DNA from: a virus | Lineage: Duplodnaviria > Heunggongvirae > Uroviricota > Caudoviricetes | Virus record (IMG/VR): IMGVR_UViG_2877953467_000003 | Location: 1-40,358 of that record | DNA: 40,358 bases | Strand: one strand, 5' to 3' | Part shown: piece by piece, positions 1,009-32,400 of the stretch | Layout of the letters: each line of letters starts with the position of its first letter | How positions within the stretch are numbered: position 1 is the stretch's first letter | The notes under the pieces: model-generated | What the model was told of the DNA's origin: nothing | Seen by the model: the letters and a program-made list of their open reading frames with translations, nothing else | Databases searched by the model: none | Program-made: the position numbers and the translations under genes

Positions 1009-1083
1009 GTCCTCTTAGTTAAATGGATATAACGAGCCCCTCCTAAGGGCTAATTGCAGGTTCGATTCCTGCAGGGGACACCA
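1009..1083 (+). tRNA. argW: tRNA-Arg (anticodon CCU)
   Basis: 75 nt cloverleaf read from sequence: acceptor GTCCTCT/AGGGGAC, anticodon loop CTCCTAA, T-arm GCAGG-TTCGATT-CCTGC, 3' CCA. Confidence 0.9.
1069..1083 (+). repeat. attL core (15 bp direct repeat CTGCAGGGGACACCA at tRNA 3' end)
   Basis: Exact copy found again at 38655-38669; the two copies bracket all phage genes. Confidence 0.7.
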
Positions 1084-5849: not shown

Positions 5850-6394
5850 GCCTCCATCGCTTTATCAGGTTTGTCGGTGTTACTGCCCTGACCGTTCTCT
5901 CTGTGACGATGCCCGTTATAGGCAAGCCGCATCGCTGACATGGTGGTACCGCTGGAGTCGCACAGGTCTTTCACCTGTCCTGTCACTTCCAGGTCCATTT
6001 CAAAACGTGCTTTAGGTGAATTGCGAAACGTGATCGTTTTACCTGCACCGTCCACCACGATCCCCTCCCGGGTCAGCGTCACGGACTGCCCCTGATCGTC
6101 ATAGACAGCCACCTCACCCGTCTGCAGCCCTTTCAGGCGGTAGCGCCGGTCCGACACCGTAACAACCACCGCATGAGAACGGTCGCCATCCGGAAACAAC
6201 ACCACCGCTTCCGCACCGCTGTTTGCCCTTGCGGTAAAACCATAGGGTTCAAGATGTTCAACCCCGGCTTTGGGTTCACCGGCAATCAGGGACACATCCA
6301 CGGTCTGGCATTTCGTGGCGGCACTGATGCTTTTCACCACTGCCCGCCCAATCAGGCCGAGAAGTTGTCGCTGCATGGCTTCAATCGTCCTCAT
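5846..6394 (-). CDS. Baseplate assembly protein V / spike (Mu gp45-like)
   Basis: 182 aa; synteny; start overlaps the stop of the upstream gene. Confidence 0.65.
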   Translation of the reverse strand: MRTIEAMQRQLLGLIGRAVVKSISAATKCQTVDVSLIAGEPKAGVEHLEPYGFTARANSGAEAVVLFPDGDRSHAVVVTVSDRRYRLKGLQTGEVAVYDDQGQSVTLTREGIVVDGAGKTITFRNSPKARFEMDLEVTGQVKDLCDSSGTTMSAMRLAYNGHRHRENGQGSNTDKPDKAMEA

Positions 6395-7473
6395 CAGAAC
6401 GGGTCCTCCTGTACTCTGGCTTTTTTCTTTTTCCGCGCGCCGGGAGCTTCGGGTTCAGGCAGATAAGCATCAGGCGGGCCGACACGGATTTCCGTCAGGG
6501 TGCCGTTCTGGTCCTGAGTAAACGTGACTTCCGAGACAAGCAGTTCGGTATTGTCGAAACCACAGACCGGATCGAAGACAATCACCCGCTGGTTGGGCTG
6601 CCACAGCGTACCGTTACCCTGTCGCCAGCCCTGCACCACATAGGTGGTTTCATCCGTCCGCGCCGCCCGTTGTCGGGCTTCAAAGTCCGCACGGGCAATA
6701 CAGCCTGCCCCCGTAGCCTGCCCTGTCTGCCTGATATACATCGGACGGTAACGGGCAATAAATGCGTCCTCTGTGCGGGCCCGCAGCGCGGTGGTGGTGG
6801 CCTCACCGAAATCATCGTCGTTTCCGGCACGCTGCCCCGCCACCTGGTAAACAGAAAACCGCTCCCGGATACTCTTCTCCGTATCGCAGGAAAGGATGTT
6901 TTCCCCGAGTACCAGCGCAGTATGTGCCCGCGTTGAGCCAATACCGCCAATCACCAGCCTGCCGTGCGGGTCGTCGTAAGCCAGTGCCTGCTGCTGACCG
7001 AGTATTTTGTTGATTACCTCAATCACCGTTTCACCGTGATCAGGCTGAACATCAGGAATAACACCCGACGGCGCACCGCTGTTCACCACCTCAATGCCGA
7101 AAGGCGCAGCAAGCGCCTGCGCAATCTGCACCAGCGAGCGTCCGTTAAACTGTGTCGGTTCAGCTGCACAGTCAATCAGGTCAGCCGTCAGACTACGTCC
7201 GGCAATACCGGTGCTGACCGAACGGGCATCGTAACGAACGGGAGTCGCCTCCACCCAGCCGGTGATCACCAGCTCATCACCAATCAGCACTTCCACTTTT
7301 GAACCGTTTTTAATGCGCGGCTGAAGCGTGGTGATACCCTCATCTCCCGGCCACTGGCGAGTGATCTCCACACTGAAATCCCGCGCCAGCCGTTCAATAC
7401 CGGCACCGATGCGCACCGATGTCCAGCCATTCCACTCCCGGCCATTTACCCGTAGCGTGACATTGTCGTTCAT
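6394..7473 (-). CDS. Baseplate hub / late control D-like protein (Mu gp44 P-like)
   Basis: 359 aa; synteny after the DNA circularization gene. Confidence 0.65.
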   Translation of the reverse strand: MNDNVTLRVNGREWNGWTSVRIGAGIERLARDFSVEITRQWPGDEGITTLQPRIKNGSKVEVLIGDELVITGWVEATPVRYDARSVSTGIAGRSLTADLIDCAAEPTQFNGRSLVQIAQALAAPFGIEVVNSGAPSGVIPDVQPDHGETVIEVINKILGQQQALAYDDPHGRLVIGGIGSTRAHTALVLGENILSCDTEKSIRERFSVYQVAGQRAGNDDDFGEATTTALRARTEDAFIARYRPMYIRQTGQATGAGCIARADFEARQRAARTDETTYVVQGWRQGNGTLWQPNQRVIVFDPVCGFDNTELLVSEVTFTQDQNGTLTEIRVGPPDAYLPEPEAPGARKKKKARVQEDPF

Positions 7474-23538: not shown

Positions 23539-23614
23539 TGGTGCTGGTTAACGGACTTGAACCGCTACCCATTCGCTTACAAGGCGACCGCTCTACCATT
23601 GGAGCTAAACCAGC
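23539..23614 (-). tRNA. Phage-encoded tRNA, anticodon UGU (Thr-like)
   Basis: Hand-folded 76 nt cloverleaf on minus strand: perfect acceptor GCTGGTT/AACCAGC, anticodon loop CUUGUAA, T-loop TTCAAGT, CCA end; one mismatch in anticodon stem. Confidence 0.55.
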
Positions 23615-23619
23615 ATATT

Positions 23620-23694
23620 TGGCGGGACAGCGTGGACTCGAACCACGATAAGAAGGTTAACAGCCTTCCGTAATGACCTTTATACGACTGACCC
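23620..23694 (-). tRNA. Phage-encoded tRNA, anticodon GUU (Asn-like)
   Basis: Hand-folded 75 nt cloverleaf: anticodon stem GAAGG/CCTTC, loop CUGUUAA, T-arm CGTGG-TTCGAGT-CCACG, CCA end; acceptor stem has one U-U mismatch. Confidence 0.5.
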
Positions 23695-23785: not shown

Positions 23786-24274
23786 CTATGCTACATGTTT
23801 AATTTTCTCTACACGTTTCCGGTTTTTAAACGCACTATCCAGAACCGGGTAAATCATAAACAACGAGGCATTGAGGATTTCGTCAACTTCCCGTCGACAG
23901 GTTGCGAGCGATGGTTTTTGAATGCGCCCGCCGCCCCGGCATAACATCTTGCGAGGTCTTGCGACGCGATGATAGTAAGATGCAATGGCGTGCTTGGAAG
24001 AGCCGTGGGCGTAGTAGCTGAGGAGGATGCCAAAGGCTTTCTTGTCAATGTACATGACGGAATCGACGACCTGAGAAATCAACATTCCATCATCATCATT
24101 ACACATTGGCCTTGTCATAACTCTTCCCGGCTCTACGCTCTCCATGAACTTCGCTATTACGCTGCTCATGCGCTTTTCCAGACGACCTGAATAAACCCAT
24201 GCGCCCCACAGTTCAAGCCAGCCATTCAGCCACTCATGCTGTTCTTTGGTGAGGTTTAGTTCTCTTATGCCCAC
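23786..24274 (-). CDS. Q: Late gene antiterminator Q
   Basis: 162 aa Cys-containing protein between nin region and tRNA/lysis genes. Confidence 0.7.
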
Positions 24275-25749: not shown

Positions 25750-25886
25750 AGGTGAGCCGTGTAGTTGAAGGTTTTTACGTCAGATTCTTTTGGGATTGGC
25801 TTGCGTTTATTTCTGGAGCGTTTCGTTGGAAGGTATTTGCAGTTTTCGCAGATGATGTCGGTGATACTTCGTCGCTGTCGTCTCAT
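25704..25886 (-). CDS. ninE: NinE protein
   Basis: Starts [23 protein letters not shown] as lambda NinE; ORF track gives a longer upstream-extended ORF. Confidence 0.7.
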
Positions 25887-26323
25887 GCCGCCCTGTCTCC
25901 CCATCGCGCTTTCCATTCGAGAGCCAGTCGCGCTTCGTCCGACCACTTAACGCCACGCTCTGTACCGAATGCCTGTATAAGCTCTAATAGCTCCGCAAAT
26001 TCGCTTACACGCATCCTGCTGGTTGACTGGCCTATTACCACAAAGCCATTCCCGGCAAGGTTAGGAACAACGTCTTGCTGCTTTAATGCTGCGGTAAACA
26101 CACACTTCCAGCTTTCTGCATCCAACCAGCGACCATGCCATTCAACCTGACGAGAGACGTCACCAAGGCAAGCCCAAAGCTTTCGATTCTGGTCTAAGCT
26201 GCGGTTGCGCTCCTGAATGGTTACTACGATTGGTTTGGTTGGATCTGGAAGGATTTGCTGTACTGCGTGAATAGCGTTTTGCTGATGTGCTGGAGATCGA
26301 ATTTCAAAGGTCAGTTTTTTCAT
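25883..26323 (-). CDS. ninB: NinB recombination protein (Orf family)
   Basis: [28 protein letters not shown] recognised as lambda NinB; start overlaps stop of an upstream micro-ORF. Confidence 0.85.
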
Positions 26324-26400
26324 GACTTCCCTCTCCCCCAAATAAAAAGGCCTGCGATTACCAGCAGGCCTGTTACAAGCTCAGTGATGTAGATGGTCAT
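26320..26400 (-). CDS. 26 aa hydrophobic micro-protein, translationally coupled between dnaB-like and ninB
   Basis: Hand-translated [26 protein letters not shown]; ATG overlaps the helicase stop, TGA overlaps the ninB ATG. Confidence 0.35.
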   Translation of the reverse strand: MTIYITELVTGLLVIAGLFIWGRGKS

Positions 26401-27851
26401 CAGAATCCCCCTTTCTTCTTGGACTGCGGTTCCTCGCGTTCACGTCGGCGCATTTCAGCAGACTGTTGGTCTGTGTCATAAATAGCGCCATTTGCCTGAA
26501 TGCAATACACCGTGCCGGTATTGCCATGACGATTGAGACGAAGGATTAGTTCGGTTTCACCAGGTGGAACACTGTCATCAAAAGCACCTTCACGATGGAT
26601 CCCCACCCAATAATCGCAATCCTGTTCAATCTGCCCTGTATCTCGCGAGTCACTTGGTAATGGGCGTTTATTGGTTCGGCTTTCCAGTGCGCGGTTAAGC
26701 TGTGTCAGAAGCACAACAACGCAATCAAGCTCTTTGGCAAGGTTCTTCAGTCCTTTGGTGATCATGCCGTAAGCAAGGTCGTTGCGATCGGCCTTCTCAG
26801 CAGTCATTAGTGTCAGGTAATCGACCAGAATCATGCCAACACATCCTTTTTCTCGCTTGATTCGACGGCTTTCGCTAACGATTTGAGCCAGAGATAATCC
26901 CGGCGTGTCGTCGATGTATAGCAGGTCGATTTCACTCAAACGATTAGCTGTTTCGATCGCCCTGTTGAAGTCACCATCGTAATCACCCTGATAGCCGTCA
27001 TCAGCGTCATTTGTCGCCGGAAGGTAAAAAATATTCGGGTTAACACCTGACTTCTGTCCCACCAGTTTTTCCAGTATCTGGTCACCTGGCATTTCAAGGC
27101 TGAACATCAGAGCGGGCTTTTTCTCATGCACTGCGCAGTTGATTGCCATCTGGCTGTATAGCGTCGTTTTCCCCATCTTAGGGCGAGCGCCAATGACAAA
27201 CAGAGAGCCTTTCACCAGACCTTTCGGTGACAGCATCCTGTCCAGCGATGGGATCCCTGTGCTCATTCCTCGTTGTTCGCCTGACGGGTCAAATCGCTTC
27301 TCAAGGTCGCTAACCCAGTCTTCCATGACCTCACCAAATGAGCGAAGGCCGCGACGCGATCCGGTTTTTGCATGGTCTGTCAGTTGCGTGAAAATCGCCT
27401 GAATAGCTTCGTACTTCTGCGTTGCAGTCATTCCGTTGCGGGAATATAGCAATTCCGTCGCTTCAGTCATGCGGTTGATGGCGTAGCGTTCCATTGCGGT
27501 TTCGCGAACCTGCATTGCATAGGCAACGATGTTTGCGGCGCTTGGCGTGTTCTTTGCGATCTCAGCGATATAAGCAAAACCGCCAACAGACGCCGTTAAC
27601 GATTTACGCTCCAGTTCATCGAAAAGCGTCAGGCCATCTACTGGCTTTTGCTCCCGGTGCATTCTGGTTATTTCTTCGAAAATGATTTTGTGTGGTCGGC
27701 TGTAAAATGAATCAGGCTTCAGCATCGCCAGAACTTTCTGGACGCGCTCACTGCTGTCATCATCCAGAAGCAATCCACCAATCACCGCCTGCTCTGCCTC
27801 GATGCTATGGGGCGGCGCATAAAAATTATCGGTCATCGTGTTCACCCTCAC
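26400..27851 (-). CDS. Replicative DNA helicase (DnaB family, P22 gene 12-like)
   Basis: 483 aa; N-terminal DnaB domain (SIEAEQAVIGGLLLD) and C-terminal RecA-like ATPase (GARPKMGKTT Walker A). Confidence 0.85.
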   Translation of the reverse strand: MRVNTMTDNFYAPPHSIEAEQAVIGGLLLDDDSSERVQKVLAMLKPDSFYSRPHKIIFEEITRMHREQKPVDGLTLFDELERKSLTASVGGFAYIAEIAKNTPSAANIVAYAMQVRETAMERYAINRMTEATELLYSRNGMTATQKYEAIQAIFTQLTDHAKTGSRRGLRSFGEVMEDWVSDLEKRFDPSGEQRGMSTGIPSLDRMLSPKGLVKGSLFVIGARPKMGKTTLYSQMAINCAVHEKKPALMFSLEMPGDQILEKLVGQKSGVNPNIFYLPATNDADDGYQGDYDGDFNRAIETANRLSEIDLLYIDDTPGLSLAQIVSESRRIKREKGCVGMILVDYLTLMTAEKADRNDLAYGMITKGLKNLAKELDCVVVLLTQLNRALESRTNKRPLPSDSRDTGQIEQDCDYWVGIHREGAFDDSVPPGETELILRLNRHGNTGTVYCIQANGAIYDTDQQSAEMRRREREEPQSKKKGGF

Positions 27852-28716
27852 GAACTTTCAGGTATGTATTATCGTTAAGCAGGAAATCAAATCCCTTTTT
27901 GTGCCAGACGGTTCCGCGCTGATGGTTTGGGCGCTCTTCGAACATCCATCGGCAATTTTCGCCTACGTAGCTCAAATAATTTCTCCAGTCCTGCATCGTG
28001 AACCCATGCCCGTCAAGCTGGCGGGTTATCACTCCGGCTTTGCGCCAGAACGTTCGGATCTGGTTTTTACGCTTGTCATTCAGTGCGCGGATTCTTGGCG
28101 CTTCAGGAAGGATTTCGTGGTAAGCATCGACAACATCCTGACAGCTAACGGAAGGTTTTTTCTTGTCAGACTTTTTGTCTGCTGTGGCACTCTCTAATAC
28201 GTCAGTATTAGAGATATTATTTATATTATTGTTTATGGACAACCGTTGGACAACCGTTGGACAATCTCCGCTGAGAGCCGCGCCATTACTGCTGTTTGCG
28301 TTGGACAACCGTTGGACAACCGTTGGACAATTTTTTGCCTGAAAATCGTCATATTTAACGATTGTAAACAGGCTAAATTTCTTCCCCATCGAGCAAATAT
28401 TAAGCATTCCTTTCGACTCAAAAGTCCGCAATAAGCTCCGAACTTTGTTGTCGGGGATGAATGTTTCTCTGACCAGCGACGGGCGTCCAGTTATCATCTG
28501 ACCGCGATCAACAGTTATCGGACCGATATCCGTATTGACGACAGTAGATTCGTGATTAGCCTTGAGGATTAAGTGAAGCCAAAGATGTACTGCCTGAGAG
28601 TCCTTATAGAGCCTGCTGTCCATAAACTGGCGGTGTATAGAGACATACCCCATACTGGATGCCTCCTGATGTTGTACAGGGTTATGCCTGTAATCAGCTA
28701 ACTTAACGACGCCCAT
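27826..28716 (-). CDS. Replication initiator protein (lambda O / P22 gene 18-like)
   Basis: 296 aa; iteron repeats inside the coding region (repeated peptide CPTVVQRLS); upstream of helicase with overlapping ends. Confidence 0.75.
   Translation of the reverse strand: MGVVKLADYRHNPVQHQEASSMGYVSIHRQFMDSRLYKDSQAVHLWLHLILKANHESTVVNTDIGPITVDRGQMITGRPSLVRETFIPDNKVRSLLRTFESKGMLNICSMGKKFSLFTIVKYDDFQAKNCPTVVQRLSNANSSNGAALSGDCPTVVQRLSINNNINNISNTDVLESATADKKSDKKKPSVSCQDVVDAYHEILPEAPRIRALNDKRKNQIRTFWRKAGVITRQLDGHGFTMQDWRNYLSYVGENCRWMFEERPNHQRGTVWHKKGFDFLLNDNTYLKVREGEHDDR
28237..28380. repeat. Phage replication origin: two clusters of three 11 bp iterons plus AT-rich region
   Basis: CCGTTGGACAA x3 at about 28240-28265 and x3 again at about 28300-28330, followed by AT-rich stretch; within the O-like gene as in lambda ori. 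Confidence 0.7.
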
Positions 28717-28898: not shown

Positions 28899-29180
28899 TC
28901 AGGCCTCGAAGAATTCGCCGTTCTTCGGGGCTTTTTCTTTTGTCAGGTAATTGGCAAGCCGCTTAGTCAGCTCAGCCATTTCATCGTCTTCGATTCCGTA
29001 TTCCAGAACAGCCAGCATCATGCTTACCTGCGAGAAGAAACCATTCTTCCATCGGCTTACCTGATATTCAGGAACCCCCATTGCTCGAGCGAATGTCTTC
29101 TGCCCCATCAGTGCCAGTTTGTTCAGCAAGGCTGACTCGATGCGAGCCGCTTTCTTGCTTTTAGTTGCAATAGTACCCAT
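28899..29180 (-). CDS. cII: CII-like transcriptional activator
   Basis: 93 aa; RIESALLNKLALMG ... QVSRWK ... FSQVSMMLAVLEYGIEDDEMAEL closely parallels lambda CII. Confidence 0.8.
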   Translation of the reverse strand: MGTIATKSKKAARIESALLNKLALMGQKTFARAMGVPEYQVSRWKNGFFSQVSMMLAVLEYGIEDDEMAELTKRLANYLTKEKAPKNGEFFEA

Positions 29181-29256: not shown

Positions 29257-29288
29257 GCCCTTTTTCAGGGCTGGAATGTGTAAGAGCG
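29257..29288 (-). promoter_or_regulatory. nutR site (boxA CGCTCTTACA and boxB GCCCTGAAAAAGGGC)
   Basis: Minus-strand sequence CGCTCTTACACATTCCAGCCCTGAAAAAGGGC matches lambda nutR as recalled; between cro and cII. Confidence 0.7.
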
Positions 29289-30513: not shown

Positions 30514-31518
30514 ATGAATTCTATTGAAAATCATGATGTTTATGTGTATACAGGCGATATTCATCGTGATGGTTATCTTGATCTCACCAATGAAATCAAG
30601 AAACGTAAGTCACAACATGGATTAAAAGAGAATGTTATCTTCTGTGTTGCTACTTATGGCGGTGATCCAAATGCAGGTTATCGTATAGGTAGAGCTCTAC
30701 AGCACCATTATGAAACGGTAACACTTTTAGTTGTTGGACCATGCAAAAGTGCTGGTACACTAATAGCTATAGCAGCCAATAAACTTGTTATTGGTGACAT
30801 GGGGGAGCTTGGGCCATTAGATATCCAACTGAAAAAAAACGATGAAATAGGTGAGATGAGTTCTGGTTTAGCTATCATGACAGCTCTTGATGCTCTAAAG
30901 GAACGCTCTATTTCAGCGTTTAACTCACACCTTGTTAAGATAAGATACGAAAATCAGATAAGTACCAAAATGTCTGCTGATATCGCGACCAGACTTACAG
31001 AAGCGTTGATAGCACCTATGGCCGCACAGATAGATCCAATAAAGCTTGGTGAACATCAGCGCGCAATGAGTATAGCTATCACTTATGGCCAACGATTAGC
31101 AGACAAACCAAGCAGCCTAAAAGAAGGGGCGTTAGGCAAACTAATAGCCTCATATCCTTCACATGGATTTGTTATCGACAGAAAAGAAGCCAAGGAACTT
31201 TTCAAGTGTGTTGAACATCCTGAAGGCATAACAGAAATACTCTATAATCTTTTCTGTGACAAAATTCATAGTGGTGAAATTCCAACATTTGGAAAGCCAA
31301 GAGTAATGGATTTCACTGTTTCCCAACAAGATAAAGAGGAATACACTAATGCCGAAGAATCTGCAACCGGAGATGGAAGTTCTCAACAGGATGCTGGAAA
31401 GCCAGATCCAGGAAGGTCGCGATCTGGCAAGAAAAGCGGAACAACACCTGAACGAGATCAAGAAGGAATTGGAGCCGTATCAATTCAACCACCAGATGAA
31501 CAGCAACCTAATGCGTGA
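30514..31518 (+). CDS. ClpP/S49-like serine peptidase family protein at the rex-equivalent position
   Basis: 334 aa; ClpP/crotonase-like motifs (VATYGGDPNAGYRIG, GPCKSAGTLIAIAANK) plus polar disordered C-terminal tail; AT-rich gene; family assignment from motif recognition only. Confidence 0.55.
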   Translation: MNSIENHDVYVYTGDIHRDGYLDLTNEIKKRKSQHGLKENVIFCVATYGGDPNAGYRIGRALQHHYETVTLLVVGPCKSAGTLIAIAANKLVIGDMGELGPLDIQLKKNDEIGEMSSGLAIMTALDALKERSISAFNSHLVKIRYENQISTKMSADIATRLTEALIAPMAAQIDPIKLGEHQRAMSIAITYGQRLADKPSSLKEGALGKLIASYPSHGFVIDRKEAKELFKCVEHPEGITEILYNLFCDKIHSGEIPTFGKPRVMDFTVSQQDKEEYTNAEESATGDGSSQQDAGKPDPGRSRSGKKSGTTPERDQEGIGAVSIQPPDEQQPNA

Positions 31519-31836: not shown

Positions 31837-31869
31837 GAGGCTCTTAAAAATTAAGCCCTGAAGAAGGGC
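31837..31869 (+). promoter_or_regulatory. nutL site (boxA-like GCTCTTAA and boxB GCCCTGAAGAAGGGC)
   Basis: Near-identical to lambda nutL as recalled; perfect boxB hairpin. Confidence 0.75.
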
Positions 31870-32067: not shown

Positions 32068-32400
32068 ATGGATGCACAAACACGCCGCCGCGAACGTCGC
32101 GCAGAGAAACAGGCTAAATGGAAAGCAGCAAATCCCCTGTTGGTTGGGGTAAGCGCAAAACCAGTTAACCGCCCTATTCTCTCGCTGAATCGCAAACAGA
32201 AATCACGAGTAGAAAGCGCACTGAATCCTATAGACCTTACAGTGCTGGCTGAATACCGCGAACAGATTGAAAGCAACCTGCAACGTATTGAGCGCAAGAA
32301 TCAGCGCACATGGTACAGCAAGCCACGCTGTGAAATGGGTGTGACTTGCTCAGGCCGCCAGAAGCAACGCGGAAAATCAATTCCAGCTTATTACGATTGA
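32068..32400 (+). CDS. N: Antitermination protein N
   Basis: Begins MDAQTRRRERRAEKQAKWKAANPLLVG (arginine-rich motif), recognised as near-identical to lambda N; downstream of nutL. Confidence 0.9.
   Translation: MDAQTRRRERRAEKQAKWKAANPLLVGVSAKPVNRPILSLNRKQKSRVESALNPIDLTVLAEYREQIESNLQRIERKNQRTWYSKPRCEMGVTCSGRQKQRGKSIPAYYD

Follow-up and report, generated by a model that had tools for sequence, protein, structure and literature searches.

The lambda tR2 terminator lies within ninA, a short hydrophobic open reading frame of a lambdoid prophage

Results

The ninA locus in the pR delayed-early operon

The window analyzed here is a stretch of 40,358 nucleotides, comprising positions 1 to 40,358 of the IMG/VR virus record IMGVR_UViG_2877953467_000003. 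Its minus strand carries a pR delayed-early operon in the order CII, O-like replication gene, DnaB-type helicase, ninA/tR2, ninB, ninE, ninF, ninG, NinI-type phosphatase, and Q. The element under study lies between the helicase gene and ninB. The genes and signals relevant to it are the following:

23786..24274, minus strand: gene for the Q antiterminator (Pfam Phage_antitermQ, 9e-25), the essential downstream target that tR2 would gate
25883..26323, minus strand: ninB (orf), recombination mediator (Pfam NinB, E=1e-54)
26320..26400, minus strand: ninA open reading frame (ORF list)
26400..27851, minus strand: DnaB-type replicative helicase gene (product 483 aa), upstream of ninA (Pfam DnaB, 6e-32; DnaB_C, 3e-60)
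26406..26412, minus strand: Shine-Dalgarno-like AGGGGGA, 5 nt 5' of the ninA ATG, within the last helicase codons (sequence; anti-SD duplex)
28899..29180, minus strand: CII gene (operon annotation)
29257..29271, minus strand: nutR boxB, identical to that of lambda and upstream on the same transcript as tR2 (0 mismatches; 0.01 chance matches expected)
31855..31869, plus strand: nutL boxB, exact (boxB search)
32068..32400, plus strand: lambda-type N antiterminator gene (Pfam N36, 1.5e-25)

The ninA frame comprises 26 codons plus a stop and runs on the minus strand from an ATG at 26400..26398 to a TGA at 26322..26320. The helicase gene ends in tandem in-frame stops (GGA TTC TGA TGA), the first of which (26402..26400) has one A in common with the ninA ATG (TGATGA). 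The anti-SD duplex predicted at the AGGGGGA motif reaches -10.7 kcal/mol, against a background mean of -2.0. At its 3' end, the ninA TGA overlaps the ninB ATG (26323..26321) as ATGA. The first-pass annotation had described an ORF whose ATG sits on the helicase stop and whose TGA sits on the ninB ATG, and the sequence and ORF list show this description to be accurate.

Because N, exact nutL and nutR boxB sites, tR2, and a downstream Q gene are all found in the window, its N/nut/tR2/Q timing circuit is complete. In lambda, RNA polymerase modified by N reads through tR2. From the complete N/nutL/nutR/Q set we infer that tR2 would also be subject to N-dependent readthrough in this prophage.

Several other features of the window were recorded. 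The O-like replication gene holds two TGGACA-N18-GACAAT repeats (28236..28331), which are reflected in its product as CPTVVQRLS repeats and are probably origin iterons. On the plus strand, a strong 14-bp hairpin followed by a T-run (28901..28943) lies antisense to the 3' end of CII, the position expected for the terminator of an oop-type antisense RNA. A 334-aa ORF (30514..31518, plus strand) occupies the lambda rexAB position between the CI-like repressor and N and may be a lysogenic-conversion or defense gene; its Pfam match to ClpP-like SDH proteases is sub-threshold (29.6 bits, cut-off 31.3). Genes for tRNA-Thr(TGT) and tRNA-Asn(GTT) lie directly downstream of Q (23539..23694, minus strand), and a tRNA-Arg(CCT) gene near the start of the window (1009..1083, plus strand) may mark the prophage attachment site.

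Identity and distribution of ninA

The ORF is the already known ninA and not a new gene. The peptide encoded in the window is 100% identical to ES18 gp63 and Sf101 NinA (NCBI) and 96% identical to NinA of lambda, P22, and mEp234, and it matches phrog_5907 over its full length (E=1.4e-19; positions 1-26 of 27). Neither Pfam nor NCBIfam returned a model for the 26-aa peptide. The lambda form appears in UniRef as 'NinA protein', the mEp234 record reads 'NinA protein, similar to phage 21 NinA CAB39987', and the P22, Sf6, L, and Lahn2 records annotate ninA or an equivalent; the lambda RefSeq record leaves the ORF without annotation. In the literature, ninA is listed among the nin genes of lambda and P22 and is also named in phage 21 and phage L, and the nin genes are described as an ATGA-linked 'chain of interlinked genes'. 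This is therefore not an overlooked gene, as ninA is named in the lambda, P22, and phage 21 literature and annotated in many phage records.

Lambda carries the same 81-nt ORF, with ren upstream and ATGA overlaps at both ends. In the window, the upstream gene is instead a DnaB-type helicase (P22 gene 12 / HK022 P type), and for this reason the stop/start overlap is TGATG rather than the ATGA of lambda. The codons preceding the hairpin differ from lambda by one conservative replacement (I9V) and one synonymous Leu codon. Across the NinA proteins of lambda, phage 21, P22, Sf6, L, and ES18 (phrog_5907), the coupling to the neighboring genes is the same as in the window, and nothing of substance differs.

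Among complete E. coli genomes, 2003 of 5426 (~37%) carry the ninA-tR2 module, at 2923 places, and PGAP calls no ninA ORF in any of these 2003 genomes. In a tblastn search against phages, all matches to the peptide came from lambdoid phages of enterobacteria and belonged to type A (at least 84% identity) or type B (~50-65%), with no relatives beyond these two types. Our literature search returned no report of a NinA function, interaction, or localization. The nin5 deletion, which removes ren-ninA-ninI, is viable.

The tR2 terminator inside the ORF

Codons 10-21 of ninA are the lambda tR2 intrinsic terminator (26371..26340). The terminator scan places a GC-rich 8-bp hairpin followed by TTTTTATTT at nucleotides 30-61 of the ORF (26371..26340, minus strand), which divides the gene as follows:

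26372..26400, minus strand: 5' part of ninA, codons 1-10, providing ~28 nt between the helicase stop and the hairpin (sequence)
26348..26371, minus strand: tR2 hairpin, with 5' arm AGGCCTGC at 26371..26364, loop TGGTAATC at 26363..26356, and 3' arm GCAGGCCT at 26355..26348 (terminator scan, fold, lambda identity)
26340..26348, minus strand: tR2 U-tract TTTTTATTT, whose first T also closes the stem (sequence, terminator scan)
26326..26339, minus strand: GGGGGAGAGGGAAG, containing the C-terminal tail of ninA (GRGK) and the ninB SD region, a variable junction to the downstream gene (the tail differs per downstream context)

Six of the 8 base pairs in the stem are GC pairs, the loop measures 8 nt, and the U-tract lies on the transcribed strand. 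When the region 26300..26420 was folded (overall z=-0.88), the terminator stem was the sole stable element and the only one kept in the centroid fold. Hairpin, loop, and U-tract match lambda (NC_001416, ~40596-40628) base for base. The two sites also have in common a pR-operon position just upstream of ninB, which in lambda falls between ren and ninB, and the N/nutR/Q circuit. In addition, the site is identical to the 'TR2-cut' oligo aacaggcctgctggtaatcgcaggcctttttatt used experimentally as lambda tR2 (Li et al., NAR 2016, PMC4824070), and the same 22-mer occurs in 15 of the papers searched. The homologous site is labeled 'terminator; homology to phage lambda; tR2' in the Sf6 record, 'terminator L2; similar to phage lambda' in P22, 'tR2' in Lahn2, and 'terminator' in phage L. 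The established role of the interval is thus transcriptional, that of the lambda tR2 terminator, and termination in this prophage is expected on the grounds of sequence identity. Termination is the main function that experiments have established for these 81 bases, and the embedded terminator had been overlooked in the first-pass annotation.

The relation between tR2 and translation has been measured on plasmids (PMC4824070). In E. coli reporters, the efficiency of lambda tR2 was ~0.9 when the upstream stop codon was ~30 nt or more away, while a stop codon only a few nt away repressed the terminator almost wholly. The natural upstream sequence gave an efficiency of ~0.8 already at 18 nt, and natural spacers of 18-30 nt or more gave near-maximal efficiency in the plasmid system (PMC4824070). 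These authors place the terminator 30 bp downstream of the AUG and 16 bp upstream of the stop, a geometry that the ORF in the window matches exactly. Termination was efficient where the terminator lay in the initial 100 nt of an ORF, because the ribosome cannot catch the polymerase there, and terminators late in a coding region were partly repressed (PMC4824070). Furthermore, construct W48 of the same plasmid study contains the NinA start. Since mutation of its RBS or ATG restored expression of the upstream reporter, this start was judged 'not weak'; the same mutations shifted tR2 termination by only ~10% (PMC4824070).

Alternative hairpins at the same site

Copies of the module were gathered from IMG/VR with three anchors: the 5' end of the ORF, hairpin A, and hairpin B. 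In different phages the same site is occupied by three distinct 24-nt hairpins, each followed by a T-run:

hairpin A: AGGCCTGC/GCAGGCCT
hairpin B: GGGGCTA../..TAGCCCC
hairpin B2: GGCCACT/AGTGGCC

The pairing registers of A and B differ by one nucleotide; these two hairpins are alternative cassettes and not one alignable helix. Changes within hairpin type B are compensatory (T-A to C-G) or wobble, and G-U wobbles account for three of the four distinct changes seen in the stem of the 150 A-type copies. The hairpin structure is clearly preserved across the copies.

HK97 gp56 represents type B. This 32-aa NinA (MTIYITELITGAIYTVALFYWIKNEGDPDGHR) resembles the window form in its first 11 residues, its position, a 24-nt hairpin with T-run, and a hydrophobic core. 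In contrast to the window form, it has the GGGGCTA...TAGCCCC hairpin, its peptide is only ~50% identical, and its acidic tail is longer and extends 14 nt into the next gene. Type-B NinA (for example HK97 gp56 and two of the sampled loci, L044 and L070) is named 'histone H1' in many NCBI annotations of E. coli, Salmonella, and Shigella; the name is evidently wrong and has spread over hundreds of contigs.

No Rfam family reached its gathering threshold over the region, and a Trp_leader match in the surrounding 300 nt scored no better than chance (14 bits, where the gathering score is 41; E=2.8).

A scan of contigs from diverse hosts added little diversity, as it returned mostly probable lambda contamination and three chance matches to the 22-mer. 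In the latter (L163 and L167, Klebsiella; L147, a Nitrospirota MAG), the 22-nt tR2 stem-loop occurs by chance in unrelated sequence and lacks the T-run. The other matches place the lambda tR2 22-mer in assemblies that represent unrelated taxa in GTDB (among them Pseudomonas, Oceanobacillus, Shewanella, Bradyrhizobium, and Nocardioides), at loci L145, L149, L151-L153, L156-L159, L161, L162, L164-L166, and L168. Several of the contigs concerned are of low coverage and three measure ~48.4-48.5 kb; they are probably contamination with lambda control DNA.

Conservation of the reading frame and its translation

The coding layer was assessed on copies anchored on the hairpin alone. Because the 22-mer also arises by chance without a T-run, exact-pattern matches were filtered before counting, and 241 copies were kept after the three chance matches had been dropped. 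The ATG and an open frame through the U-tract are present in 231 of the 241. The ORF is disrupted in the other 10 with the hairpin intact: five copies lack 1 nt, a nonsense codon interrupts one, and an HNH endonuclease insertion of 665 nt splits the remaining four. The inserted HNH gene (6334..7050 in locus L014; also in L095, L126, and L155) lies between ninA codon ~9 and the tR2 hairpin, with its own stop codon ~2 nt before the stem, and PGAP calls the equivalent E. coli copies 'HNH endonuclease'. In one locus with the GGCCACT/AGTGGCC hairpin (L078, 992..1320), the ninA frame has no stop and runs into the downstream gene as a 109-aa ORF.

In at least 8 upstream contexts, the ATG marks the precise homology boundary of the module. 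All but one of the upstream contexts, a singleton, provide an SD-like motif, with anti-SD duplexes between -5.4 and -11.6 kcal/mol; among random 18-mers, only 10.7% attain -5.4. On the other side, the distance from the ninA stop to the start of the next gene is -14 to +26 nt in at least 12 downstream contexts. The coupling had been described as unlikely to be accidental, and this holds: with the ATG and open frame kept in 231 of the 241 hairpin-sampled copies and the geometry kept in all of these contexts, it goes beyond chance. The proposed check of conservation of the ORF and its overlaps in relatives thus came out in favor of the frame.

The evidence for selection on the codons is weaker. 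Over the 27 nt that separate the start codon from the hairpin, 9 distinct substitutions are synonymous and 11 nonsynonymous, where 28% synonymous would be expected (P=0.075). The synonymous bias in this 5' part is strongest in frame 1 of the three frames, and 5 of 6 changes in the SE21 haplotype are synonymous. Of the coding-like synonymous pattern proposed earlier as a check, only this marginal excess was found. The C-terminal tail is unconstrained and changes with the downstream context, and a radical L13Q replacement, caused by a change at a loop nucleotide, occurs in the middle of the putative helix in 9 of the 150 A-type copies (~6%).

A 2013 lambda ribosome-profiling paper by Liu and colleagues is cited as evidence for NinA initiation. 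Taken together, the intact frames, the SD-like motifs, and the published start-site mutagenesis indicate that the ninA ORF is probably translated. Given the stop/start overlap, the SD motifs in the various contexts, and the published active start site, translation would very probably occur by hand-off from the upstream gene.

Hydropathy of the encoded peptide

The best 19-residue Kyte-Doolittle window of the peptide, at residues 2-20, scores 2.03, above the usual membrane-helix threshold of 1.6; that of type-B NinA is borderline at 1.52. A candidate explanation was that a TM-like composition is a mere consequence of encoding a GC-rich stem and a U-tract. Two null models were used to evaluate it: 100,000 randomly generated terminators that share this architecture and frame, and 79 terminator-like hairpins that occur naturally in phage loci. 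Of the random terminators, 87% are open in the ninA frame, and the 12 residues they encode have a mean hydropathy of 0.09 (sd 0.59). The corresponding value is 2.23 for type A and 1.13 for type B, with fractions of random terminators at or above the observed value of 1e-4 and 0.058, respectively. Against the natural hairpins, these fractions are 0.018 and 0.11. Type A therefore ranks in the top 0.01% and 2% of the two nulls and type B in the top 6% and 11%, and the candidate explanation was not supported. The earlier proposal of a transmembrane-like helix is thus borne out by hydropathy, at a level above what terminators usually encode. There is moderate evidence that hydrophobic codons are favored beyond a side-effect of the hairpin, and modest evidence for selection on the peptide itself, the synonymous excess being marginal.

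Discussion

The reading that we consider highly probable is that the locus represents the 'ninA-tR2' module found in the pR delayed-early operon of lambdoid phages, in which tR2 is embedded in a probably translated relay ORF whose 5' part would serve as a spacer and whose product is a hydrophobic peptide. According to this model, tR2 would halt ~90% of unmodified RNA polymerase ahead of the nin genes and Q, and polymerase modified by N at nutR would pass. Q and late-gene expression would then depend on N, because only N-modified polymerase reads through tR2. The ninA frame would be translated via hand-off from the helicase gene and would pass ribosomes to the next gene by ATGA, GTGA, or other short overlaps, and this relay would keep the 'chain of interlinked genes' continuous over the terminator. 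The first ~28 nt of ninA would act as a spacer between the upstream stop and the hairpin, such that a terminating ribosome does not suppress tR2; this role is suggested by the position of the helicase stop ~28 nt before the hairpin together with the published plasmid data on distance and efficiency (PMC4824070). The product would be a 26-aa hydrophobic and non-essential peptide. In this scheme, translation of NinA as a coupling relay is likely, and a function for the peptide itself is possible.

An extension of this model, which we put forward only tentatively and think rather less likely to be true than not true, is that NinA is genuinely dual-coded: a functional micro-protein that spans the membrane once and has its own role, and whose hydrophobic NTN stem and loop codons would be co-selected with tR2. 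If so, over a third of complete E. coli genomes would carry such a protein, and standard annotation would miss it. Its role might be, for example, a membrane-acting early-phase or exclusion function, or non-stop/tmRNA-linked signaling on tR2-terminated transcripts. Type I toxins such as TisB and ShoB, small hydrophobic peptides of 20-35 aa, resemble NinA in length, in a single hydrophobic helix, and in a short basic C-terminus. Unlike for these toxins, we know of no antisense RNA partner of NinA and of no detected homology; the likeness is one of resemblance only.

The opposite view, that the ORF is a pure by-product, appears improbable. In this case the DNA would be conserved only as a terminator and a recombination 'boundary sequence', translation would be inconsequential, and the peptide would have no selected property. 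The stretch is indeed annotated in Sf6 as boundary sequence bsq6, and the terminator together with such a mosaic 'boundary sequence' role largely explains the conservation of ninA DNA, which is near-identical in all carriers and is accompanied by no distant peptide relatives. The coding signal that is not significant at 0.05, the unconstrained tail, the 87% of random terminators that are open in frame anyway, and the lack of a PGAP call in 2003 E. coli genomes are all in line with this view. However, a by-product does not account well for a module boundary that coincides precisely with the ATG across at least 8 upstream contexts, nearly all with an SD-like motif, when ~11% of random 18-mers reach even the weakest SD of these contexts, nor for a ninA stop that falls at the start of the next gene. 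The hydropathy excess over both nulls, the 5 of 6 synonymous changes in the SE21 haplotype, and a start site that is demonstrably active (PMC4824070) also argue against it.

Still less credible, in our judgment, is that the element serves above all to encode a functional single-pass membrane micro-protein, with the hairpin secondary or incidental. The hydropathy window of 2.03 and the excess over random terminators (1e-4 for A, 0.058 for B) and natural hairpins (0.018 and 0.11) would fit such a gene, as would a T at the second position of all three loop codons, the hydrophobic stretch likewise encoded by the independent type-B hairpin, the synonymous bias of the 5' part, and the maintenance of SD and coupling in many contexts. 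Nevertheless, the hairpin is the experimentally proven terminator tR2. Alternative hairpins keep their structure while peptide identity drops to ~50%, L13Q is tolerated mid-helix, and ORF-disrupted copies retain the hairpin. Moreover, nin5 phages lacking ren-ninA-ninI are viable, and the literature search yielded no function or localization.

Finally, control resembling attenuation, in which a close-following ribosome on ninA would block tR2 folding so that the translation rate sets readthrough into nin and Q, is very improbable: a small ORF combined with an intrinsic terminator has the right architecture, and ribosomes stopping a few nt from tR2 repress it almost completely, with partial repression where a terminator sits late in a coding region (PMC4824070), but silencing the NinA start alters tR2 efficiency by only ~10% and terminators in the first 100 nt of an ORF, where the ribosome cannot catch the polymerase, are efficient (PMC4824070), the fold of 26300..26420 (z=-0.88, only the terminator stem stable) offers no alternative antiterminator pairing, no regulatory codon runs occur, and the Rfam Trp_leader match is at chance level. 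The trp and pyrBI leader attenuators likewise combine a small translated ORF with an intrinsic terminator, and the position of the ribosome relative to the hairpin matters in both cases. In ninA, however, the ORF runs through the terminator, with no antiterminator alternative, no regulatory codons, and a translation effect of ~10%. The ninA-tR2 element is therefore not a member of the leader-peptide attenuator class.

For genome scanning, the locus provides a caution: a short hydrophobic ORF with ideal coupling can overlie a textbook non-coding signal, and therefore both layers need to be read. Biologically, the ninA-tR2 module is ordinary, consisting of the N-dependent tR2 gate that precedes nin and Q in a lambdoid prophage, together with the named ORF ninA. 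Within it lies a 26-aa peptide that is carried by ~37% of complete E. coli genomes and by lambda, is left unannotated by PGAP, and has a hydrophobicity that looks slightly beyond accidental.
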